Virus record (IMG/VR): IMGVR_UViG_3300037313_000092
Span: 1-49,856 of that record
Reading direction: 5' to 3' (one strand)
Source of the DNA: a virus
DNA: 49,856 nt
The notes under the pieces were generated by a model. It ran no database searches and was not told where the DNA came from. It saw only the letters and a list, made by a program, of their open reading frames with translations. This document shows positions 3,965-46,664 of the stretch, piece after piece (position 1 is the stretch's first letter; each line of letters starts with the position of its first letter). The position numbers and the translations under genes are program-made.

Positions 3965-4666
3965 CTAGTCGCGGACGTCGAAGAAGGCTTCTCCCATGGC
4001 CATGGCGTCCTTGTACATTTTATTTTGGGTTGCCGGCTTATCGTACTCTGAGCGGTTCTCAGCCTTGAGCTTCAGATAGTGGCTCCGGGGTTGTGGCCCC
4101 GTGTTTGTAGGCTTGAAGGTTTCCGGTCGAGTACTAGTCGGCGGAGTAAACACAGCCTCGGGCTTTTCGCCACCGAGGAGCTGCATGAATGCAGCGGGAG
4201 ACTGTGCTGCGATGTTGTCGAGGAATTTCTGATCGACACCCATCTTTTCCTGAAGAGTATTAAGAGCTGTCTGGTACTGATCACCAAACTTCTTTTTCAG
4301 CTCCGCCTTGACGGCATTGACGTTAGCTTCGGCACGGGCCTTGGCATCACGCTGCTGGAGAAGTTTGAGAACATCGTCCTCAGACAAACCTTTGACTTCA
4401 ACCCGTTCCGTCGGTTCGGTAACCGGACTTTCCGTGGCTGGACGTGTATTAAGAGCATTCAATCGGTCTAGAATCTCTTGACTTCTATCTGGGACCTGAC
4501 GGGTAGTCAAATCCCTAAGGACTTCGGCTTTCTCGGCCTTGAGTTGTTCGATGAAACGATCTTTCTCAATAATGGCCTTGGCGACAGCATCAGGGTCCTT
4601 GTACTTCTTGCCTTCACCAACGAGGGCATCAAACGTTACGGGGTCACCGTTTTCAAAAAGAGACAT
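3965..4666 (-). CDS. Scaffolding protein
   Basis: 233-aa highly charged, helical or coiled-coil-looking ORF lying between the portal and capsid genes. Confidence 0.5.
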   Translation of the reverse strand: MSLFENGDPVTFDALVGEGKKYKDPDAVAKAIIEKDRFIEQLKAEKAEVLRDLTTRQVPDRSQEILDRLNALNTRPATESPVTEPTERVEVKGLSEDDVLKLLQQRDAKARAEANVNAVKAELKKKFGDQYQTALNTLQEKMGVDQKFLDNIAAQSPAAFMQLLGGEKPEAVFTPPTSTRPETFKPTNTGPQPRSHYLKLKAENRSEYDKPATQNKMYKDAMAMGEAFFDVRD

Positions 4667-4678
4667 AGTGGTCCTATG

Positions 4679-4933
4679 TTAAAAGGGAATGAGTTCTTTA
4701 AGGAGACGAAGTACGGAGAGTTGTCCATTCCGATACGCCGTCTTGTGGCTCCAATTAGGAGTGCTAAAGTCATTAAGTGATAATGACGTATTCATAACCT
4801 CAGTTTCTTTCTCCTCTGCAATCTCTTTGAGACGCTTGAGAAGACGAGTACTGTTACGGACGATTACCTCAAAGTCTTCTTTGTCTTTGTCTTTGAGATG
4901 CTTCGTCCAAGCGATATTAAGGGGTTTGGACAT
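4679..4933 (-). CDS. Hypothetical protein
   Basis: 84-aa charged ORF between portal and scaffold. It overlaps the portal stop by 17 nt. Confidence 0.4.
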   Translation of the reverse strand: MSKPLNIAWTKHLKDKDKEDFEVIVRNSTRLLKRLKEIAEEKETEVMNTSLSLNDFSTPNWSHKTAYRNGQLSVLRLLKELIPF

Positions 4934-6749
4934 TAGGCGGAGGGCCTGCTAAGTTGGGTTGTCCCTGATCCATACTATGATCATCCGGGGTAAGTCCCGA
5001 GGGCGTCATAGCTTCCATCTGGGTTTTCTCCATATGGGCCTGAGCTTCACGACGTGCGTCGGCTTCCTCAGACAATCGAATATTCTCTTGAACCAGACCG
5101 AAGTCTTTGAGGTTCAGATTGTCTTCGATGATTTTAGCCATCTGGTAACCGGAGAAGTGAACCAGAACCTGCGGGTCTTTGCCCATACCGGAATTATAGA
5201 AGTTAGCCAGATTTTGAACTAGCTCTGATTGTTCGACGAAATGACGCGCTGCAAGAGGTCTGATCTTGCCCGAACCTGTGAGGTCAGATGCGCTAAGGGT
5301 CTGGAAGATAGCGACGTCGAAGTCAGGATCGAAGACCGGAACAGAAACAGCTCGGCTGAGATTGCGTCTTGCAAGTTCGAGCATTGAGTTAAGAAGTGGC
5401 TCAAGGACTTGTTCTTCAAATTGAGATACCTTGCTCATAAAGATACGGGAGGCTGCATTCTCAAGGCGTTCAACCTCGAAGGCAGTTTTCTCGCCTGGAG
5501 TACGGAAACCCATGGCTTCCTTAGGGGACCCAGCCATGATCTCCATATTATTCATATAGAGTTCGAGTTCTTGATTATCCTCGGCGATAGTGCTGCGGGT
5601 CTCAAGGACTTCTACGTCACCATCATCGCCAACGTGGATACGGGCGAAAGGACCCCATTCGAAATCATTGACATAGCCTTTGATCTTCAGGGGCGGGAAA
5701 GCCGTAAGATCGTACTTATCTGCTTTAAGGTTCTCGATGTGATCAATTCGGTATTGCATACCAACGAGATTAGCAAGAGGACCCATAGCCCAGAGATTAC
5801 CTGGACGTTTGCGCCATCCTGCATGGAAGATCGGAGGATAGCCGAAGTAGCTGGGGTTAGGTTTCTTGAGGATAACTTTATGTCTATCGACAACGGAGAT
5901 AACGTAATTCTTCAGAAAGGTGTCTGTGTCTCGGTCGTAGAGGTCACCATAGAAAGTGAGAACCTCTGCGTAGTCGCTTTCGAGATAGGCTCGGTAACTG
6001 TGGAACCCATCCATGTTAAGGAAGGCATCTTCAACCTTGAGGTCGGTACTGCCGAGCTGTCCTGCGGTATTTCGGATGTTCTTGAGATAAGTCCAGAGTT
6101 CTTCGTAGGATTCTTTGTTCTCTGGTGTAGTTTCATTCTCTAAGATTGATTTGACTTCACCAATGGAGATTAGGCTTCTAACGATCTTCGGCACACGGGT
6201 AAAATCCGGGCCGATAGGGTTCATAACCATGTCGTATGGCGAGTATCGTTTAGCCGCCGGGCCACAATAGCCGGTTTGGGTTTTATCCGGGAGTACGACG
6301 GTTTGGTCGATCCATTCAGGAGCAGCGAAGCAATTACCAGTATCAATAAAGTCACACAGAAGTTCCTGAACAACATTCTTGAAATGAGGCTGAGTAATAA
6401 CCCAACCCATGTAATTCTCGATGGAAGCTGCCTTCTCAATCGAAGCATCGTCTTTGGAATCCCCTTCCCACTTCAACCACTTCCTCTTAGGGAACACGGC
6501 TGCCATGTAATACGCGAGAAGGTTGTCTCTGATCTGGCAGAGCTTCGGGATAGTCGTCTTATTCTTCCACGGAAGCTTGGAGTTAGTGGTCTTCGTAGTA
6601 TCAGTAGCAAAAAGATACTCACGGACTTCTTTGGTCTCCATTTCGAAGACTTGTCGAAAGGTTCTCCATTCCTGGTACCGCATAGCAATACCAACGCCGA
6701 TGCCGTCGGGCTTCCAGATTTGGCGTAGATGTAGGACTTGTCCAGCCAC
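4917..6749 (-). CDS. Portal protein
   Basis: 610-aa ORF directly downstream of the large terminase, with a GTG start overlapping the terL TAG by 1 nt. Size and position fit a portal. The start is uncertain because an internal ATG (MRYQEW) is also possible. Confidence 0.65.
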   Translation of the reverse strand: MAGQVLHLRQIWKPDGIGVGIAMRYQEWRTFRQVFEMETKEVREYLFATDTTKTTNSKLPWKNKTTIPKLCQIRDNLLAYYMAAVFPKRKWLKWEGDSKDDASIEKAASIENYMGWVITQPHFKNVVQELLCDFIDTGNCFAAPEWIDQTVVLPDKTQTGYCGPAAKRYSPYDMVMNPIGPDFTRVPKIVRSLISIGEVKSILENETTPENKESYEELWTYLKNIRNTAGQLGSTDLKVEDAFLNMDGFHSYRAYLESDYAEVLTFYGDLYDRDTDTFLKNYVISVVDRHKVILKKPNPSYFGYPPIFHAGWRKRPGNLWAMGPLANLVGMQYRIDHIENLKADKYDLTAFPPLKIKGYVNDFEWGPFARIHVGDDGDVEVLETRSTIAEDNQELELYMNNMEIMAGSPKEAMGFRTPGEKTAFEVERLENAASRIFMSKVSQFEEQVLEPLLNSMLELARRNLSRAVSVPVFDPDFDVAIFQTLSASDLTGSGKIRPLAARHFVEQSELVQNLANFYNSGMGKDPQVLVHFSGYQMAKIIEDNLNLKDFGLVQENIRLSEEADARREAQAHMEKTQMEAMTPSGLTPDDHSMDQGQPNLAGPPPNVQTP

Positions 6750-21184: not shown

Positions 21185-22170
21185 CGCTTTGGAACGTCGC
21201 ATTTAATGATACGCTCTCAGACCAGGATTTGAGTACGTTCACCGTAGGACAGGCAGCGCCCTTCCCACAACCTGTGCCTACTGCTCAACCCGGCTTCTTC
21301 GGAAGACCGCCGAGTTACTACTTCGAAGAAGAAACCCATCAAGGTGTTTTTAACGCCAATCGAAGTAGTCTACAGGCTTGGAACGCATCGCATCGTCCCG
21401 GACCGGCATGGACGGAGGCTGACGAAAATCAACTCGTCAATAAACTCTGTATGACGTGGTTCGGTGAGCCATACAACTGGAGTGATTGGACGACAGAGTA
21501 CCAACCACTGAACTTGGATAAGCTCGACCCAATCGTCAAGCGTAAACGTCCGTTGCCATCGTTCAAGATCGATTACCAGACGTACGCAGAGATCAAGCTT
21601 CGTCTGCTGAACACGATCATCTTGATCAACGGTGTTCCTTTCTACGTTGGCAAGATCAAGCAGAAAGGGGAAGACTACGTTCTCGGGGTAACCGGCGATG
21701 GTCAGTCTGGCTACTTTACAGTGAAATACTCGGATATCAAGGACCTCAGGTCTTTGCCTCCGATGTATATCACAACGTCCAAAACCGGATGGTTGGCGCG
21801 ACACCCAGGCCGTGTTTACCAACAAGGTGCTACGCGGCAGAACACCATGATGTTCAGCATCGATGGTCGAGATAGTTGGGGCATAGACAGCTCAAATATG
21901 CTGCGTGCTATAAGCCGCCGCGAAAACAGAAAGTGGAATGAGACTTTGTTAAGTCTTATGAAAAGCGGTGATCTGACCAATACTCGTTTATCTGACGAGG
22001 TTGCAGTCTTAAGATCGAGTGATAAAATCCTGGCCTGCTATAAGGCGCGGCCTTTGGGTTTTATTCAAGACAACACCGTCACACTGATTGACGAAGACGA
22101 TATACTCCAAGGCTGGATTGAAGCATCCGCCGAGGAAGTTGGTTTAGAACTCAGGGTCGGCAATGTTTAG
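21181..22170 (+). CDS. Unknown protein between the two ligases
   Basis: 329 aa with an ATGA overlap to the upstream gene. No motif recognised. Confidence 0.55.
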   Translation: MTLWNVAFNDTLSDQDLSTFTVGQAAPFPQPVPTAQPGFFGRPPSYYFEEETHQGVFNANRSSLQAWNASHRPGPAWTEADENQLVNKLCMTWFGEPYNWSDWTTEYQPLNLDKLDPIVKRKRPLPSFKIDYQTYAEIKLRLLNTIILINGVPFYVGKIKQKGEDYVLGVTGDGQSGYFTVKYSDIKDLRSLPPMYITTSKTGWLARHPGRVYQQGATRQNTMMFSIDGRDSWGIDSSNMLRAISRRENRKWNETLLSLMKSGDLTNTRLSDEVAVLRSSDKILACYKARPLGFIQDNTVTLIDEDDILQGWIEASAEEVGLELRVGNV

Positions 22171-23089
22171 CGAAAACGCCAAAATGCTTTTCCACGAACT
22201 CTGCAATAAGCAGAAGAAAGTCGCGGATGTGGGCATCGAACTCGAGATCGAAGGATTAAACCTTCCTTCGCCTGTGCCGCATTGGAACTCCAAGCCAGAA
22301 GGTAGTCTCCAGAACGGCATCGAGTATATCACAAAACCAATCAAAGCCGATGCTGTCGAGGTTTACGTGGATAACCTCAGGAAGTACATCCAGCTTTCCG
22401 GCGGTGAGATCAAGCCGAGCTATCGATGTTCGACACATATCCATGTGAATATGCTGCCTGAGGCAACGTCGGATATGCTTGGCTTCTACGTCATCTTCAT
22501 GATGTTCGAACCTCTATTCCTGACGTTGTGCGGCAATCAACGAAACGGCAATCTGTTTTGTATGTCATCGTACGATACCGGCGATGCGGTGATTTTGTTT
22601 AATACCCTCTGCCGTATCGTCCACCAAACACGAACACATGGTTTTGGGTTCAGCCGAGGGAAGTACTCCAGCCTGAATGCCGATAGGCTGAGTGATCTTG
22701 GCACACTCGAAGTCCGCTCATTTCCACTAAGTGTGGATGGGTTTACCGTGTCCAAGTGGGTCAAGTGGCTCATGAACATGAGGCAGATGGCGCGCGACGA
22801 GACGGACAAGACCTACCGTGGGTTGTGGAAACAAGTCCGGCAGAACGGGGACATCAGCGCCCTTAAGATTTTCGACAGTGATTTGTTCTCGATTTCCAAT
22901 GCCCATGAGCTTCTGGAACTCGGGACGGAAGGGGCATATGAACTCACCAAAGTCCTGAAGACGTGGTATTATGATAACCCCGAGGTGCGGAAGCCTAGGA
23001 AGAAGAAGTCGCCTCCCAGCTTCACGGTACCGACACCGTCTGATATGGACGCGGTGATTGATAGCCTTGTAGACGACACGGAGTTCTAA
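22163..23089 (+). CDS. Putative amidoligase (Amidoligase_2 kind, GS-fold carboxylate-amine ligase)
   Basis: Motifs are VGIELEIEG, EGSLQNGIEYITKP and STHIHVN. 308 aa. Confidence 0.65.
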   Translation: MFSENAKMLFHELCNKQKKVADVGIELEIEGLNLPSPVPHWNSKPEGSLQNGIEYITKPIKADAVEVYVDNLRKYIQLSGGEIKPSYRCSTHIHVNMLPEATSDMLGFYVIFMMFEPLFLTLCGNQRNGNLFCMSSYDTGDAVILFNTLCRIVHQTRTHGFGFSRGKYSSLNADRLSDLGTLEVRSFPLSVDGFTVSKWVKWLMNMRQMARDETDKTYRGLWKQVRQNGDISALKIFDSDLFSISNAHELLELGTEGAYELTKVLKTWYYDNPEVRKPRKKKSPPSFTVPTPSDMDAVIDSLVDDTEF

Positions 23090-24089: not shown

Positions 24090-25667
24090 TTGATTAGTTC
24101 TTTTAATTCATTGATTAAGTCCCATATTCCCTGCCCAGATCAGATCAATTGTAGGTCTTCTGATGCTGCTACTGATTACGGTAGCCGTATTTATTGCTTT
24201 AGTTGTAGGAAGTCATTCAAGACAGTGGATAATATTCAATCAATCAAGCAAGACGAGGATTACTCGCCTAAAGAGTTCACACTAGAGTACCTGCCTTGGC
24301 GTGGTCTCACCAAAGAAACAATGCAGTTCTTTGGTATGAAGACCCGCGTCACCCCTGAAGGTAGACCACATTCTGTTATGTATCCCTACCCGGCAGGTGG
24401 GGTGAAGAACCGTGAGTTCAGTAATCATAAGTTCTGGTCTACAGGGCCGATGTCTGCTCCGGGTTTGTTTGGGCAGGACAAGTTCCCTGCCGGGTCGGCT
24501 AAGGCAATCACCATTACAGAAGGAGAACCCGATGCGGCCTCGGCGTTTCAAATGCTTGGGTCTCAATATCCTGCTGTATCGATCCGTTCATCAGCTACAG
24601 CACGGAAAGACTGTCAGCAGGCTTTTGAGTATCTCAACTCATTCGAGCGTATCTACCTTTGCTTGGACAACGACGAAGCGGGACGGAAAGCTACTCAAGA
24701 GATCGCTTCGCTATTCGACTTCAATAAAGTCTATCATGTCAAGCTAGAAGGACATAAAGATGCCAACGCCTTCCTCGAAGCCCGCCAATCCGAACAGTTC
24801 AAGCGAATTTGGTGGAACGCTCGAAGGTACCTTCCCGAAGGTATCGTATCCTCACATTCTGAGTTTAGAAGCATCCTTGAGGCAGATGTATCCAAACCAA
24901 GCGTCCCTTACCCTTTCGATGGGCTCAACGCCAAACTCCTCGGTATCAGAACTGGTGAGTTCGTTCTTGTTACTGCTCCAGAAGGCATTGGGAAGACTGA
25001 GTTCATCCGACGAATTGAACACCATCTCCTTCGAAATACAGACGCAAGTATCGCCTGTATCCATCTCGAAGAGACAAAGGCTCGTCAACTTAAAGGATTG
25101 GCTGGACTACACCTTAGAACAGCAGCTCACCTCCCTGATGGGGCTGTATCTCTTGACGAAATAGACGGCGCGCTAAAGGAACTTACTCATGGGCGGGATG
25201 ACCGTCTTCATATCTATAGTCATTTCGGCAGTGATGACCCTGACGTTCTCATTAACTCCATCAGGTTCCTTGGTGCTGTTTGTGGTTGTAAGTATATTTT
25301 CTTGGATCATATCACAATGGTGGTCTCGGGGTTAGCAGATGAAGACGAACGAAGAACATTGGACTACCTTTCTACTAAGCTTGCGACTTTGTGTCATGAC
25401 CTTGACATCACGATTTTCTGCATCAGTCATGTCAACGATGATGGCAAAACCAGAGGATCGCGAAACATCTCTAAGGTCGCTAATCTCAGAATTGATCTTG
25501 CTAGAGACCTCGTTGCGGAACTTGAAGCAGACCGCAACAAGACATTTGTCACAGTCTCAAAGAACCGTTACGCAGGCAAGACGGGTCCCGCTGGAGTTCT
25601 GAAGTTCGACCCGGAAGAGTTCATGCTTAAGGATGACGATGGCATAGTTATGCCTCCAGTCGAATAA
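24090..25667 (+). CDS. Bifunctional primase-helicase (T7 gp4-like)
   Basis: It has the Zn finger CPDQINC...CFSC and the TOPRIM motifs ITEGEPDAASA and LDNDEAGRKA. Walker A is APEGIGKTEF and Walker B is IFLDHITM. The start is a TTG and is uncertain, because an ATG at 24083 opens only a 4-codon ORF. Confidence 0.85.
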   Translation: MISSFNSLIKSHIPCPDQINCRSSDAATDYGSRIYCFSCRKSFKTVDNIQSIKQDEDYSPKEFTLEYLPWRGLTKETMQFFGMKTRVTPEGRPHSVMYPYPAGGVKNREFSNHKFWSTGPMSAPGLFGQDKFPAGSAKAITITEGEPDAASAFQMLGSQYPAVSIRSSATARKDCQQAFEYLNSFERIYLCLDNDEAGRKATQEIASLFDFNKVYHVKLEGHKDANAFLEARQSEQFKRIWWNARRYLPEGIVSSHSEFRSILEADVSKPSVPYPFDGLNAKLLGIRTGEFVLVTAPEGIGKTEFIRRIEHHLLRNTDASIACIHLEETKARQLKGLAGLHLRTAAHLPDGAVSLDEIDGALKELTHGRDDRLHIYSHFGSDDPDVLINSIRFLGAVCGCKYIFLDHITMVVSGLADEDERRTLDYLSTKLATLCHDLDITIFCISHVNDDGKTRGSRNISKVANLRIDLARDLVAELEADRNKTFVTVSKNRYAGKTGPAGVLKFDPEEFMLKDDDGIVMPPVE

Positions 25668-26145: not shown

Positions 26146-26311
26146 AGTAGACTTCGAGGTTGGTGAAGAAATCGGTCTCGGTAACAAGACATGTATTGTC
26201 ATGGGTTACATAATCTATGATGATAAAAATGTCTATTACGACGTTGTGGACCAGAACGATAGAGTCTACACCGAGTGTTATCTGACGGAATACAATAAGA
26301 GGCGGTCATGA
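26135..26311 (+). CDS. Hypothetical small protein
   Basis: ATGATG at 26135. 58 aa. Confidence 0.4.
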   Translation: MMTKVDFEVGEEIGLGNKTCIVMGYIIYDDKNVYYDVVDQNDRVYTECYLTEYNKRRS

Positions 26312-26535
26312 TTGAACAAAAACCCTACAATCCGGGTGAAGTCAGGCGTATTAAAGAGAGTGATTATAAGGATCGATTGGTGCTGATCTGCGGCCATATT
26401 TGGTGGCCTGTCGAAAAGGTCAACGCCTACCACTGTATCCTTCTTCAGGATGATAAACTCCCGGAAGACCCGGAGCCGAAATACATCTGGGATACCTCAC
26501 ATGGCAAGTGGGAGAAAACGGACATTGTCGTCTAA
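26308..26535 (+). CDS. Hypothetical small protein
   Basis: 75 aa with an ATGA overlap to the upstream gene. Confidence 0.5.
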   Translation: MIEQKPYNPGEVRRIKESDYKDRLVLICGHIWWPVEKVNAYHCILLQDDKLPEDPEPKYIWDTSHGKWEKTDIVV

Positions 26536-26788
26536 GCCTAAGTTCAGCCAGAAGACGATCCACGTCGGGGGTAAGATCACAATCCCCCATAGTCACATCA
26601 ATACCGGAGAAGGTGAGATCATCGCTACGACCCGGTATACGATCCTCGTCAAATACAACAAAGGAACCAAGGGTGAACAAACAGCCACCTACGGCTTCGA
26701 GTACCTCAACTACATGTACGGAGAAGAAGCCGAGCTTAACCCCAACACTGGTCGACCATCTGATCTTGATGATCCGATCCCTTTCTGA
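26525..26788 (+). CDS. Small beta-rich protein ending in an SSB-C-terminal-tail-like motif (DLDDPIPF)
   Basis: TTG at 26525 with GGGAGAAA 7 nt upstream. An alternative ATG lies at 26501. The last residues are SDLDDPIPF-stop. Confidence 0.5.
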   Translation: MSSKPKFSQKTIHVGGKITIPHSHINTGEGEIIATTRYTILVKYNKGTKGEQTATYGFEYLNYMYGEEAELNPNTGRPSDLDDPIPF

Positions 26789-26888
26789 CGAGGACTTCTA
26801 CAAGGTCCTTCGTGAGATGCATAAAAAGGGCCAGAAAATGCACGAAGCCCGTCGCGAGGCTCGTCTCAAGGATAACCCCTACGGGTGA
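26769..26888 (+). CDS. Small basic helical peptide (39 aa)
   Basis: The peptide is MIRSLSDEDFYKVLREMHKKGQKMHEARREARLKDNPYG. It has a GTGA overlap with the next ORF. Confidence 0.35.
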   Translation: MIRSLSDEDFYKVLREMHKKGQKMHEARREARLKDNPYG

Positions 26889-27061: not shown

Positions 27062-27216
27062 TCAGGATAACTGCCCCGCATTTTGTCGCTTGTGTGATTA
27101 TGGGGAACGATATAGTTTCCAAAGCAGCGCCAATCTTACGTTATATGGTAGGGTGGCCTAAACATCAGGTTATCCTCTACAGCGAAAGGAAAGGATGGAC
27201 GGTCGAACTGTTATAA
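27058..27216 (+). CDS. Small protein (52 aa) preceding the DNA polymerase
   Basis: TTG start with AAGGAGG 4 nt upstream (IRITAPHFVACVIMGNDIVSKAAPILRYMVGWPKH...). It overlaps the polymerase start by 22 nt. Confidence 0.35.
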   Translation: MIRITAPHFVACVIMGNDIVSKAAPILRYMVGWPKHQVILYSERKGWTVELL

Positions 27217-29087
27217 TCGATATCGAGGCTAACGGCTTCAACCCGGACAAGATACATTTCATTGTATGCCGGGACTACAAGACAGACGAGATAGAGGTAT
27301 TTAGAGATGTTCACGTCAATCCAGAGCCTTTTCTGGACTTTATGGGTAGCGTCGGTTGCATCGTTGGCCATCATGTACTTGGTTACGATGCTCCTGTGCT
27401 TAAGCGCTTGGTCCCTGTATGGGTGGAGAAATCTAAGTCTCTTCGCACAATCGACACTCTTGTTCTCAGCCGCCTTCTGGACTTTAGTATTTCTGGTGGG
27501 CACAGCATTGAAGCTTGGGGTCAGCGCCTAGGCATCGAGAAGAAAGGCGTTGATATTACCGATTGGTCGATACCGACCCAACAGATGCTAGATCGGTGTA
27601 TTTCAGACACAGCGGTAAATCGCGCCCTTCTCAAGCGTTTCCAAAGGTATCTCGATAGTCCTACATGGCAATCCGCCATAGAGGTTGAACACTTCATAGC
27701 CGAACGTTGCCGTGAATTACATGACAACGGGTTTCATTTTTCCCTTGACAAGGCTCAGGGGTTATGGTATAAAATAGATGCTGAGTTAAAAGAACTTGAT
27801 CACGAACTCCTTACCGCCTTTCCGCCTAAGGCTCGGTTTATCCGAGAGGTCCATCCTAGAGTTACGAAATTTGGTACACTCCATCGACAAGATTTTAGAT
27901 GGAGAGTTGACAAAGACCTATCGGATTTCAACGGGGGACCATTTTCATTATTCGAGTACGAGGAATTTAATCCTGGCTCTACTCCACAGATTATCGAAAG
28001 GTTAAACGAGGCTGGTTGGAAGCCTACTGAGAAAACTAAAGGACATATTGAAGCTCTAAGGTCCCGTGACGAGGAACGTATTGCAAAGTTCCGTACCACT
28101 GGATGGACCGTCTCCGAAGAGAATTTAAGCACTCTTCCAGACACCGCACCTCCTGCTGCTAAGACACTGGCTCGTCGTATTCTTATCGCGTCAAGACAAA
28201 GAACTCTAACAGAATGGATCAATAACTATAACCAAGAAACACACAGAATCCATGGAAGCTTCAACAGTATTGGAGCTTGGACACACCGGATGTCCCACAC
28301 GAACCCGAATACAGGTAACATCGCTAGAGAAGATGCTGTCTTCGGACCTGAAATGCGGAGCATGTGGTCAACCCCTGAAGGGTCTTATCTGGTCGGCGTG
28401 GACGCGGAAAGCATCCAGCTCAGGGTCCTTGCGCACTACATAAACGATCCTGAGTTTACCCAATCATTACTAACAGGAAAGAAAGAGGATGGTACTGACC
28501 CGCATAGCCTTAACAAAAGAGCTTTGGGAGGCGCCTGTAAAAGTCGAAATGACGCTAAGACTTTCATCTACGCCTGGCTTCTCGGAGCAGGTGTCGGAAA
28601 AGTTGCAGGAATTTTGGGCTGCGACTATCGAACAGCTAAAGCCGCAGTTGAGCAGTTTATTGAATATTACCCCGGACTCAAGCGTCTCAAACGAGACGTA
28701 ATACCTAAGGACGCCCAGAAGGGTTTCTTCCAAGGCTTCGATGGCAGATGGGTCAAGATAGTTGGAGAAGACCAAAGTTCGCGAGAACACTTCTGTCTAG
28801 CCGGGTATCTTCAGAATGGCGAAACTACAGTAATGAAACACGCCATGATGATATGGTATCCGAAGCTAATCTCGATGGGCATTCCTTTTAAGATTGTGAA
28901 CTTCGTTCATGATGAATGGCAAACAGAAGTACCTGATTACGACACCGGATTATTGGTCGCTAATACACAAGCGAAAGCAATTGCCAGTGCCGGTGAGAAA
29001 CTTCAACTCAGATGCCCAATGGCAGGCAGCATTATCTCAGGCCATGGAACGATTGCTATTGGCTCTAACTGGTTGGAAACCCACTAA
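27195..29087 (+). CDS. Family A DNA polymerase with 3'-5' exonuclease domain
   Basis: Exo I is IIDIEANG and Exo II is HHVLGYDAPVL. Motif A is VGVDAESIQLRVLAH, motif B is RNDAKTFIYAWLLGAG and motif C is FVHDEW. 630 aa. Confidence 0.9.
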   Translation: MDGRTVIIDIEANGFNPDKIHFIVCRDYKTDEIEVFRDVHVNPEPFLDFMGSVGCIVGHHVLGYDAPVLKRLVPVWVEKSKSLRTIDTLVLSRLLDFSISGGHSIEAWGQRLGIEKKGVDITDWSIPTQQMLDRCISDTAVNRALLKRFQRYLDSPTWQSAIEVEHFIAERCRELHDNGFHFSLDKAQGLWYKIDAELKELDHELLTAFPPKARFIREVHPRVTKFGTLHRQDFRWRVDKDLSDFNGGPFSLFEYEEFNPGSTPQIIERLNEAGWKPTEKTKGHIEALRSRDEERIAKFRTTGWTVSEENLSTLPDTAPPAAKTLARRILIASRQRTLTEWINNYNQETHRIHGSFNSIGAWTHRMSHTNPNTGNIAREDAVFGPEMRSMWSTPEGSYLVGVDAESIQLRVLAHYINDPEFTQSLLTGKKEDGTDPHSLNKRALGGACKSRNDAKTFIYAWLLGAGVGKVAGILGCDYRTAKAAVEQFIEYYPGLKRLKRDVIPKDAQKGFFQGFDGRWVKIVGEDQSSREHFCLAGYLQNGETTVMKHAMMIWYPKLISMGIPFKIVNFVHDEWQTEVPDYDTGLLVANTQAKAIASAGEKLQLRCPMAGSIISGHGTIAIGSNWLETH

Positions 29088-29341: not shown

Positions 29342-29452
29342 GTGGATAATCTGACTTGGTTCGCAGAGTTCCTTCTGGGCTTCTTTTGCATCATTACTCC
29401 TATTGCATTTATTGTTTTTCTGGCGTTTTACGCGAAAGGTTTTAAGTATTAA
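29342..29452 (+). CDS. Small transmembrane peptide (36 aa)
   Basis: The GTG start follows directly after the upstream TAA. The peptide is DNLTWFAEFLLGFFCIITPIAFIVFLAFYAKGFKY. It has a TAATG overlap with the SSB gene. Confidence 0.3.
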   Translation: MDNLTWFAEFLLGFFCIITPIAFIVFLAFYAKGFKY

Positions 29453-29910
29453 TGGCGACTAAACATTATAAGTTTACTGGCCCGGTAAAGTGGGCGAAGG
29501 TTTGGCCCGGGCAGGTCGATCGGAAATACGCTGAGGATAAGAAGGGCGGCAACTGGAGTATCATCCTTCAGCTTGGCGACCAGTTGGCGTTCTTCAATGC
29601 TCTTGGTACGAAGCTTAAGGCTGCCCGCTTGGATGACCCTGAGCGTGGTATCTCCAAGGGAGATGTCCAGTTCCGTCGGTATGAGCGTCATCCGAAGATG
29701 GGTGAGCTGGGTCCGCCTGCGGTTAAGGGTGTCGACGAAGGCACTATGATTGGTAACGGCAGTATCTGTGAGGTTGAGATTGCGGTTTATGATTACCCCG
29801 CTCCTGACGGTACTCGGGGTTTTGCTGTTCGTCTTGTTGGTGTGGATGTAAAAGAACTAATTAAATTTGAGCCAGTTAAGGCCGATACGGGAGAGGATAT
29901 TCCATTTTGA
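29452..29910 (+). CDS. Single-stranded DNA-binding protein (T7 gp2.5-like)
   Basis: 152 aa, positioned beside the polymerase and nuclease genes. The acidic C-terminal tail ends ADTGEDIPF. Confidence 0.55.
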   Translation: MATKHYKFTGPVKWAKVWPGQVDRKYAEDKKGGNWSIILQLGDQLAFFNALGTKLKAARLDDPERGISKGDVQFRRYERHPKMGELGPPAVKGVDEGTMIGNGSICEVEIAVYDYPAPDGTRGFAVRLVGVDVKELIKFEPVKADTGEDIPF

Positions 29911-30102: not shown

Positions 30103-30930
30103 ATGAAGACACTAGATACTCTAATTGAAGACATCTACGCAGTCTTTGATAAAGACGTGACTGTACCCCCGGAGGAAATCCAAGCCTTCGGGGATAACCT
30201 CGCGAGAACACTAAGTGACAAACTCACCAAACAAGAGCCTCGTCTCAGACTTAGTAACGTTGGCAGTCCTTGCCGTCGCCGTCTGTGGTATAGTATACGG
30301 TGCCCTGAATTGGGGGAGAAACTCTCCGGTCCAGCCCGTATCAAGTTCCTTATCGGAGACATCACAGAAGCCGTCATTATCTTCTTGGCGAAGCTCGCAG
30401 GACATTGCGTTAGAGATGAGCAACAAACCGTTGAGGTCCATGGTATCCAAGGACATCTTGACGGAACCATCGACGGAGAAGTCGTTGACGTCAAGTCAGC
30501 ATCACCGGCCAGCTTCAAGAAGTTCCAAAAGGGTCTGTCCCGGGAAACGGATGGCTTCGGGTATCTATCACAAATAGGCGGATACGCCCAAGCCAAGGGG
30601 AAGAATAATGGACATTTTCTTGCAGTTGATAAAGTCCTTGGCACTCTTCACATCGATAGCCATAGCAACCTACCTGTTATTAGTCCTGATCATGCGCAGG
30701 AAATTCGTAATCTACTCGATCAAGACACCCCTCCAGATCGAGGTTTTACGGATGAGAAACAAGGTGAAAGCGGCAATCGGGCACTCGGGTTTGTATGCTC
30801 GTACTGCGAGTTCAAACACAGATGTTGGCCGGGACTACAGGTCTACCCATACGTCAAAGGTCCGGTGTACTTCACAAAAGTAGTCAAGGAGCCGGTGCTT
30901 AGAGGTAAACGTGACCAAGGCCCGGGCTAG
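30103..30930 (+). CDS. PD-(D/E)XK nuclease with Cas4/RecB-like Fe-S cysteine set
   Basis: Motifs are SPCRRRLWY, HLDGTIDGEVVDVKS, QxxxY (YLSQIGGYA) and the C-terminal CSYCEFKHRC. Confidence 0.75.
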   Translation: MKTLDTLIEDIYAVFDKDVTVPPEEIQAFGDNLARTLSDKLTKQEPRLRLSNVGSPCRRRLWYSIRCPELGEKLSGPARIKFLIGDITEAVIIFLAKLAGHCVRDEQQTVEVHGIQGHLDGTIDGEVVDVKSASPASFKKFQKGLSRETDGFGYLSQIGGYAQAKGKNNGHFLAVDKVLGTLHIDSHSNLPVISPDHAQEIRNLLDQDTPPDRGFTDEKQGESGNRALGFVCSYCEFKHRCWPGLQVYPYVKGPVYFTKVVKEPVLRGKRDQGPG

Positions 30931-44513: not shown

Positions 44514-46664
44514 CTAGGGCGCTTGTGTTGCGGTGTCGAAAGTACTCCATCCGACAACTGAGAAAGACTTTCCTGTAACGCTAGTGATCCTGAATTGGAG
44601 GGCAACTCCGGTACCTCGGACTTTAAGTCTTCGACGGGCCGCGTCTGCGAATGTTTCATCATGCGTGATTAATTGGGTTTGTGTCCACTTCCCAGAGTTA
44701 CGGTTGTTGCTAAAATTCCATTGGGATTGGAATACATACGAGGGTTGTCCAAGCGTGGCAACGTCCTTTAGATCATTGAACAAATAAATATAATTTGACT
44801 GGAACTTGCGGATACCTTGTGTCTTCACGGAGTAGCCAGAGACAAAGAAACTATCGTAATCAATACCGCCAGTCTTTTGTTGCCAATCCAAGAAGGCCGG
44901 ATTAAAGCTTTCTGCAAACGTGAATTTATACGAACCGGCGTTGCTATAAGACGCCAGGAACTTCGTAGCCGTCTGAACCGTTGTACCCGAGAAACCATAC
45001 GTCGTCACGATATTTCCTGAACCATCAATAACCTGATCAGCTAAACTATCGATGACATTACTAGTACCAGTAACGGAGGAAGCACCTTCGATAACAACGA
45101 TGCTATTTAGGCTGACTACACTCGTGTCTACTGACCATGTATAGAAAGCACCAGACAAAAGATTAAGGCTCATGACCGAATCATACGAGTACGTCTGGGT
45201 AATCGTACCTGAGACCGCAGTTCTGTACAGCCATTGAATAGTATGCGTCCGGGGATTATACGCCCCACGAACTGTCTTCTTATTAGCGCTCGGGATGTCC
45301 TCGACGTAGAAGTCTTTGATCTTATCGTAGGTTAAGCTCTTGACATCATAGCCAGTATTACTCTGGGCAAGAACATTGATGTCACTTGTGTTCCACCAGT
45401 ACACCGAACCTTCTGCGACGACATAACTAGTACCGGCTAGGCTTCGAACGTAAGACAGATTAGCCACGTTATAGTCATCGGCAGAAAAACCAATGCCACG
45501 ACTACCTGTAATAGCCCATACACCATTGGCCCCGAACACAATAAGATTAGGTCCAAGACTAATAAGACGGTAGATAGGGCCAGCTTGAGGAATTGAGATG
45601 ACACCGCCATCCGAAGCCACGAAATCAAACAGCGTCTCACTAGTCGGATCATTCGTCGCAGCGCACCACCCGAAGTCATTCGTATCCTGCACGACACGGG
45701 TGAAGTAAATCAGTCCGTTGTATCCCTGTGCGGTAACACCGGCATACCAGACCCGGCCTGCGTGGAACTCGGTAACTGAGGGCCGCAGCGTCCCCGATGT
45801 CTGGTCGACTGTACCTGTGAGGGATAGACTAACGCCGGTCTGGGTAAGGCACGTCGCTGCCCTAGCAGTGTTCCAGGGATTGAGACGGATGAAGCCCTGA
45901 GGCGCAGGAGAACTCCCACGGTTATTGCTCGCAAGCGTCGTAGCGTTGACGACAAAGGCATTGGTACTATCCTTGAAAATCCACCAAACATCAGCATTGC
46001 TCGGGTACGCACTCGCCCCAGTATGGAACGTAGTGATATTCGTACTTGTCCAACCTTGATTTAGTAGATTGTAATTATGGTTGGCAGTCAGACTAGTCGG
46101 TCGATTGTCTACTAGAACGGCTTCGGTAATACCGTAAATATCCCTCACCGTGAAGGTAATGATACTCGCGGTAAAGGTACCGCCGCTGGGATTATATTGA
46201 ATATAGAACGGATCACAATACGGGTGGACTACGAAGAGGTAGCCCAAACCCGTAGAATACTGGCATTCGTTTTGATTGAGGTTGTCTGACGTAGAACCTG
46301 AGGCTTGGAACGATGTCAAGGACACAGTATTCGCAGACAAACCAGCAGATAGAGACAACGTGCTATTCGTATTATAAAACGATAACGTATCGCCATTCTG
46401 CTGTACGACAAGGTTAGTCAAACCGTCAGCAGAAGCATTCTTCCAGTAATAAGTGCTTTGGGCTTTCTCGGTTCTATCTTGAGTATTCGTAGTGAAGTTG
46501 TTTTCAAATTCAAACCCCAGCCGACGGCTAACCAAACCAAACTCCGTGAAGAGACAGTTATCTTGATCGATAGCTGCATTCGGAGGGAAGTTCAGAGCTG
46601 TCGCCTGTGAGACTAAACCACCAATGAAATTATTCTCAATGGTGGTATTTGAATTTCTGGGCAA
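44514..46664 (-). CDS. Tail tubular protein B / nozzle-like protein
   Basis: 716-aa beta-rich ORF downstream of the gp11-like gene. The call rests on synteny and size. Confidence 0.45.
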   Translation of the reverse strand: MPRNSNTTIENNFIGGLVSQATALNFPPNAAIDQDNCLFTEFGLVSRRLGFEFENNFTTNTQDRTEKAQSTYYWKNASADGLTNLVVQQNGDTLSFYNTNSTLSLSAGLSANTVSLTSFQASGSTSDNLNQNECQYSTGLGYLFVVHPYCDPFYIQYNPSGGTFTASIITFTVRDIYGITEAVLVDNRPTSLTANHNYNLLNQGWTSTNITTFHTGASAYPSNADVWWIFKDSTNAFVVNATTLASNNRGSSPAPQGFIRLNPWNTARAATCLTQTGVSLSLTGTVDQTSGTLRPSVTEFHAGRVWYAGVTAQGYNGLIYFTRVVQDTNDFGWCAATNDPTSETLFDFVASDGGVISIPQAGPIYRLISLGPNLIVFGANGVWAITGSRGIGFSADDYNVANLSYVRSLAGTSYVVAEGSVYWWNTSDINVLAQSNTGYDVKSLTYDKIKDFYVEDIPSANKKTVRGAYNPRTHTIQWLYRTAVSGTITQTYSYDSVMSLNLLSGAFYTWSVDTSVVSLNSIVVIEGASSVTGTSNVIDSLADQVIDGSGNIVTTYGFSGTTVQTATKFLASYSNAGSYKFTFAESFNPAFLDWQQKTGGIDYDSFFVSGYSVKTQGIRKFQSNYIYLFNDLKDVATLGQPSYVFQSQWNFSNNRNSGKWTQTQLITHDETFADAARRRLKVRGTGVALQFRITSVTGKSFSVVGWSTFDTATQAP

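Follow-up and report, generated by a model that had tools for sequence, protein, structure and literature searches.

A small phage protein with an SSB-like C-terminal tip in a T7-type replication module

A small protein encoded among the replication genes of a virus ends in a short tail that resembles the C-terminal tip of bacterial SSB (SSB-Ct). Very probably this tail is under selection as a docking peptide akin to the SSB tip, presented on a protein-binding barrel. Relatives of the protein keep the tail by selection, and the protein is therefore probably a plug for enzymes of replication or repair. In bacteria, the C-terminal tip of SSB serves as an address label shared by the enzymes of replication, restart, recombination and repair, and it is under study as an antibacterial target.

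The window, by which we mean the whole 49,856-bp stretch of DNA that was analysed, is a complete virus record with direct terminal repeats of 127 bp and a GC content of 49.5%. A search of sequencing runs for the window returned a single DNA run, a soil metagenome that is probably its source, and listed no RNA run.

The tail-protein gene and its replication module

The tail-protein gene is surrounded by a T7-type replication module that consists of a gp4-like primase-helicase, small genes, PolA, a gp2.5-like SSB and a Cas4-like exonuclease. The features of the module, and the parts of the tail protein, are as follows.

24090–25667, plus strand: gp4-like primase-helicase; C-terminus ...DDDGIVMPPVE, without a terminal aromatic residue
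26308–26535, plus strand: small upstream gene, overlapping the tail-protein gene at its start; part of the same conserved gene string
26525–26788, plus strand: small tail-bearing protein gene; 87 aa from TTG 26525, 95 aa from ATG 26501; stop codon TGA at 26786–26788
26540–26722, plus strand: N-terminal conserved domain of the tail protein, ~60 aa; four strands and a short helix, predicted as an SH3/Tudor/KOW-like small barrel
26723–26761, plus strand: variable, low-confidence linker EEAELNPNTGRPS, whose length and sequence vary among homologues
26762–26785, plus strand: C-terminal tip DLDDPIPF, an SSB-Ct-like octapeptide
27195–29087, plus strand: family A DNA polymerase
29452–29910, plus strand: gp2.5-like phage SSB of 152 aa, with the codons for its own tail ...GEDIPF at 29890–29907
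30103–30930: Cas4-like exonuclease of the replication module

The open reading frame (ORF) that ends at 26788 is a real gene. An earlier note on this DNA had described a protein of ~87 aa ending in SDLDDPIPF, and translation of 26525–26788 on the plus strand bears this out, giving 87 residues with SDLDDPIPF followed by TGA. The stored gene call (P0003) begins at ATG 26501 and gives 95 aa. Homologues begin M-x-F-S, which aligns to K-F-S in the window, and TTG 26525 is thus the closest start for the tail protein; the sequence GGAG is found ~10 nt upstream of it. The tail is identical with either start.

The next small ORF (26769–26888, plus strand) is read in a different frame; its ATG falls within the tail codons (GAT GAT), and it shares 20 nt with the tail gene. 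Gene overlap was considered as a cause of tail conservation and rejected, because the overlapping downstream ATG is missing in L001, a related IMG/VR contig. Among the window, L001 and a second such contig, L002, synonymous codon positions differ while the tail residues stay. The retention of residues over synonymous codon differences, together with the absence of the overlapping ATG in L001, points to selection on the tail peptide itself; as judged from these sequence comparisons, the tail is under protein-level selection.

L001 and L002 (50.6 and 49.3 kb) share the gene string of the window. Their order is primase-helicase, small genes (including the homologue of 26308–26535), tail protein, small genes, PolA, gp2.5-like SSB and Cas4-like exonuclease, and in each of the three genomes read (window, L001 and L002) the tail-protein gene sits in the interval from primase-helicase to PolA. 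The homologue of 26308–26535 is syntenic in L001, with the common segment ...CGHIWWPVEKVNAYH....

The nearest cultured relatives are the Zobellviridae roseophages Lentibacter phage ICBM2, CRP-5 and SIO1, with a polymerase identity of 36–41%. Alignment of the window polymerase with T7 gp5 shows that most of the thioredoxin-binding insert and of the front-basic-patch loop is missing. The earlier note had also put forward 29452–29910 as the phage SSB, with ADTGEDIPF as its ending, and it was right on both points: translation on the plus strand gives ADTGEDIPF followed by a stop, and an AlphaFold model (pLDDT 84) has T7 gp2.5 as its best PDB match (1je5; E 1.4e-5), with the Enc34 SSB and DUF2815 next. 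This best match is the basis for calling the protein gp2.5-like; phrog_112 matches it weakly (E 0.068).

The protein family, its barrel and its linker

A word-indexed protein search matched the tail protein only to itself. When HMMER was run exhaustively over 1.84 billion cluster representatives, with a family threshold of E ≤ 1e-3, it found 19 proteins including the window protein (18 others), which are 70–101 aa long and 34–49% identical to the window protein. No family was matched in Pfam and PHROGs scans of the tail protein or in Pfam scans of all 19 members, and a profile search against PDB sequences gave nothing below E 0.09, the best match being an intein fragment that was taken as chance. 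Among cultured phages, tblastn found no tail-protein homologue, and ICBM2 and SIO1 are without the family; no member was found in GTDB genomes. The IMG/VR scan returned only L001 and L002, the JGI metagenome scan returned the L002 contig and one spurious locus (L086), and the family is absent from 80 further polymerase relatives (L003–L082; 32–48% identity). No fused or longer forms of the family were found, a null result of little weight. Three more members lie on contigs of 16,890, 46,811 and 14,692 bp, and SSB homologues lie on contigs of identical sizes, which are presumably the same contigs. A further HMM match in the window itself, at 46116–46289 (plus strand), is weak and lies antisense within a 716-aa minus-strand ORF, and was rejected.

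The consensus of the N-terminal domain across the family is VGGKIxVP..S.VN...GEI...T..GI.V.Y.....Q..FYSF.WLN..YG. AlphaFold2 (AF2), run on the family alignment, predicts a core with a pLDDT of 86–95, a linker with a pLDDT of 57–69 and a tail of low confidence, in which there is a weak helical turn (pLDDT ~57). The modelled barrel is of the SH3/Tudor/KOW-like fold class. Its alignment by VIA-align to Tudor, KOW and SH3 domains gives Z 5.1–6.6 and rmsd 1.8–3.0 Å over 43–66 residues; the best Foldseek matches are PsaE, NdhS and KOW, with a probability of up to 0.96, and structure matches in the ESM Atlas include the Tudor domain of PcrA and the C-terminal domain of UvrD. No match at E ≤ 1e-3 came from Foldseek against PDB and BFVD. 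These fold scores are ordinary for any small barrel, and hence no function can be transferred to the barrel from its matches. The Tudor domain of PcrA/UvrD, the RNAP-interacting domain of CarD, the KOW domain of NusG/Spt5, and PsaE/NdhS all have the same general fold as the tail-protein barrel, but no sequence relationship to it. DUF5026, from the ESM Atlas feature matches, was set aside with a score of 0.84, under the level that counts.

The net charge of the barrel ranges from −3 to +4 over the family, with a mean near 0. Since the barrel is not basic, it is more likely to be a protein-binding module than a dedicated DNA-binding surface. This bears on the suggestion that the protein is a 'mini-SSB', in which the barrel would bind DNA and the tip would recruit partners, duplicating the function of SSB. 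Nucleic acids are possible ligands of SH3-like and KOW barrels, and the tail protein has the fold–linker–tip layout of SSB, but its barrel is close to neutral, it has no gp2.5-like match and the phage already has a gp2.5-like SSB. An OB fold was not found either, the AF2 model and fold searches giving SH3/Tudor/KOW; PF00436 is absent from the entire record, and the tail protein has no Pfam match at E ≤ 0.1. We regard a DNA-binding mini-SSB as most improbable.

Conservation of the C-terminal tip

The terminal motif of SSB-Ct is strongly conserved (PMC10143822, PMC5872125, PMC10164576). The octapeptide of E. coli SSB-Ct is DFDD+DIPF; its IPF is indispensable, and affinity is raised by Phe172 and the Asp residues (PMC10143822; PMC5872125). 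The earlier note had read the tail of the small protein as a mimic of this tip, and its homologues were checked for loss of the motif; the tail is conserved across the 19 representatives, with the consensus [D/E]-L-[N/D]-D-x-I-P-F. At the sequence level, the reading as a mimic is upheld by this conservation, by the low-confidence linker that precedes the tip and by the match to DFDD+DIPF at 7 of 8 positions. Counts for the last eight residues, anchored on the P-aromatic pair and taken over the 19 representatives including the window, are given below.

Position −8: D/E, 11/19
Position −7: L/W/F/M, 17/19
Position −6: N/D, 17/19
Position −5: D, 17/19
Position −4: variable, K/R in 4/19
Position −3: I/V/M, 19/19
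Position −2: P, 18/19
Position −1: F/W, 16/19

The family tip is in register with the E. coli SSB-Ct, DFDDDIPF, including the hydrophobic residue at −7; position −4 is Asp in SSB-Ct and variable in the family. The motif is the exact C-terminus in 12 of the 19 representatives, including the window, L001 and L002. The other seven, mostly the most divergent, either continue for 2–10 residues past the aromatic or have a degenerate tip.

The window and 82 related loci together contain 8021 closed stop-to-stop ORFs of at least 35 aa. An ending in [ILVM]P[FW] occurs in 24 of these, and 22 of the 24 are the tail protein, the gp2.5-like SSB or the primase-helicase. By this count, the SSB-like ending pattern on replisome-module proteins is beyond chance. 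The sole other [ILVM]PF ending in the window belongs to an 89-codon stop-to-stop ORF (4679–4948, minus strand) that ends ...LLKELIPF and is not acidic.

The tail might instead be kept for a reason that has nothing to do with SSB, as a signal for degradation or localisation, by folding back on the barrel or for an unrelated partner, in which case its likeness to SSB-Ct would be convergence. The shortness of the motif, the failure to keep position −4, the seven members of 19 that do not end at the aromatic and the weak helical turn modelled in the tail are all compatible with this. We consider it quite unlikely, given that 7 of 8 positions match SSB-Ct in register and that the [ILVM]P[FW] endings are so concentrated on the replisome proteins of this phage group.

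The likeness to bacterial SSB lies in the terminal I-P-F, the Asp residues at −5/−6, the hydrophobic −7 and a flexible linker after a folded domain. The tail protein differs from SSB in having no OB fold, PF00436 match or basic DNA-binding surface, in being an SH3/Tudor-like barrel protein of ~87 aa and in its variable −4. It resembles an SSB tip placed on a different body, and is not a member of the SSB family.

Candidate partners of the tip

The tails of the small protein, the SSB and the primase-helicase can be compared within genomes. The comparison covers three genomes read directly and three pairs matched through contigs of equal size.

Window: small protein DLDDPIPF; SSB GEDIPF; primase-helicase MPPVE
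L001: small protein DLNDKIPF; SSB DGPPVH; primase-helicase LPPMA
L002: small protein DMNDSVPF; SSB DEPPVF; primase-helicase LPPME
16,890-bp contig (paired by size): small protein PWDDPIPNFG; SSB QEGPPV
46,811-bp contig (paired by size): small protein PWDDPIPF; SSB NSEVPF
14,692-bp contig (paired by size): small protein PFDDGVPI; SSB QEGPPV

Mean column identity is 59% in the SSB family as against 34% in the small-protein family. Homologues of the gp2.5-like SSB nevertheless end variously in DIPF, GPPV, GPPF, EVPF, GPPVH, EPPVF and EGPPV, and within the clade the SSB and helicase tails drift while the small-protein tail stays D-D/N-x-[IV]-P-F.

The earlier note had offered two functions, a decoy for host SSB partners and an accessory of the phage replisome, and both find some support. 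The reading that we tentatively favour is that the tip docks in a pocket of host SSB partners, by recruitment or by competition. The tail protein would then be a three-part adaptor or competitor made up of barrel, flexible linker and tip. The SH3/Tudor-like, near-neutral barrel would presumably hold a protein partner, and the terminal Phe and its free carboxylate would plug into the pockets by which host SSB-interacting proteins read SSB. Candidate partners are exonuclease I (ExoI), RecQ, PriA, the chi subunit, RNase HI and UDG. Two outcomes can be envisaged: the tip could bring a host enzyme to the barrel's partner at the phage fork, or, by competition, it could draw SSB-interacting enzymes away from host SSB. 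That the tail docks, that the pocket is the host's and what the barrel binds are points that we infer.

A host-type target is favoured because the tail of the small protein is frozen while the tails of the phage SSB and helicase drift; a frozen tail suggests a target with which the phage cannot co-evolve, whereas a tail that docks on a co-evolving phage partner could drift. It is also favoured because the layout of fold, variable linker and tip is that of bacterial SSB. By analogy, support comes from Bas52_0087, an SSB-like phage protein that combines OB folds with an FDDDIPF tip and is genetically tied to host ExoI-dependent processes. It is a trigger of the DRT10 defence system, and it has been proposed to interfere with host ExoI-linked ssDNA processing (bioRxiv 10.64898/2026.04.29.721553). 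It resembles the tail protein as a phage protein that bears a copy of the host SSB tip, but it contains two OB folds and as a whole is like SSB, whereas the tail protein lacks an OB fold and is smaller by a factor of four or more. In a literature search, no naturally occurring protein outside the SSBs came up as a selected, stand-alone bearer of the SSB tip.

Several observations count against a host pocket. Position −4 is variable, with K/R in 4 of 19 members, where SSB-Ct has Asp, and in the seven members with extensions or a degenerate tip the free carboxylate that is read by SSB-Ct pockets would be buried. A pure decoy would also compete with the phage's own SSB, because the window SSB itself ends DIPF. 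Finally, the helicases of related phages carry similar ...DDLPF tails, which in T7 make a phage-to-phage contact.

This last point leads to an alternative that we hold to be only slightly less likely: the tip may dock on the phage DNA polymerase or primase-helicase, replacing in trans a tail that the helicase has lost. In T7, gp4 ends ...SNDTDF and gp2.5 ends ...DEDGDF (T7 record), and the polymerase is the target of both; the gp2.5 tail anchors on its front basic patch, and a DTDF peptide is bound in 6P7E (PMC12339929). The primase-helicases of relatives with ~33% polymerase identity end ...TLDDLPF, ...DSDAIPF, ...EDDVPF or ...DDKQEF, and since these distant helicases end so, the IPF-type ending serves a phage replisome subunit in the wider group. 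Helicases of the window clade are without such a tail (...MPPVE, ...LPPMA), and the tail-bearing small gene lies just downstream, between the helicase and polymerase genes in 3/3 genomes read; the window SSB has the same kind of tip. However, a pocket shared within the phage replisome predicts like tails in each genome, and L001 reads GPPVH, LPPMA and NDKIPF. The T7 docking loops (the thioredoxin-binding loop and the front basic patch K587–R591) are largely absent from the window polymerase, so the T7 precedent cannot be mapped here, although another site is possible. The tail is also not polyacidic as the T7 tails are.

Compared with T7 gp2.5 and gp4 as a system, the tail protein shares the replisome type, an aromatic-ended tail and a gene position in the helicase–polymerase interval. 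It differs in that acidic residues dominate the T7 tails (14 of the final 20 positions in gp2.5 compared with 5 of 20 in the tail protein, counted by eye), in that T7 carries these tails on its SSB and helicase rather than on a separate small protein, and in that the window polymerase has not kept the docking loops of the T7 enzyme.

Docking in a host SSB-partner pocket and docking on the phage replisome carry different implications. If the tail binds host partners, the family would offer a compact natural means of probing or blocking the SSB interactome, and would exemplify takeover of the host through motif mimicry. If it binds the phage polymerase, T7-type replisomes would be able to shift a polymerase-docking tail from the helicase to a small subunit.

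A Pro-Pro-hydrophobic ending is common to the helicases of the window clade (24090–25667 in the window; L001:618–2231; L002:3561–5153) and most of the SSBs (P0004–P0015; ...EGPPV, ...GPPF, ...EPPVF). Such PPV/PPM-type tails may be ligands of the barrel, or they may be marks of different hosts. The SH3-like fold class is known to read proline-rich peptides, and actinobacterial SSB tips read ...DDEPPF. There could thus be two orthogonal tail codes, in which the barrel binds the PPV/PPM-type tails of helicase and SSB and presents a host-type SSB tip, although we think this unlikely. If it were true, the phage fork would become a platform that recruits host SSB partners; alternatively, SSB tips would flood the cell and halt the host replication and repair processes that depend on SSB, with the phage replisome spared.

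Acidic and aromatic-ended tails are also seen on other proteins of these phages. Within L012–L056, a set of podovirus contigs, marine and other, in which polymerase identity is ~33%, the tip of the primase-helicase is SSB-like (for example L025:4328–5989, L014:4316–5986 and L012:725–2413), and in sister lineages the helicase ends ...DDKQEF, ...EDEL or ...EEII; to judge from these endings, the gp4-like helicase tail is a fast-changing acidic-hydrophobic label. ICBM2 (L088) encodes a hypothetical protein of 78 aa between primase-helicase and polymerase (4556–4792) that ends ...MPDDDEDEDY and is not homologous to the tail-protein family, its gp2.5-family protein gp13 (L088 6813–7307) ends ...DSDQDGW, and SIO1 gp16 ends ...EMEIPFG. 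An Amidoligase_2 protein in the upstream amide-ligase cassette of the window (22163–23089, plus strand) ends ...SLVDDTEF, and its L002 counterpart (1213–2328) ends ...INDDVEF; on the comparison of these two endings, this is a conserved T7-like acidic, Phe-terminated tail on a non-replication enzyme.
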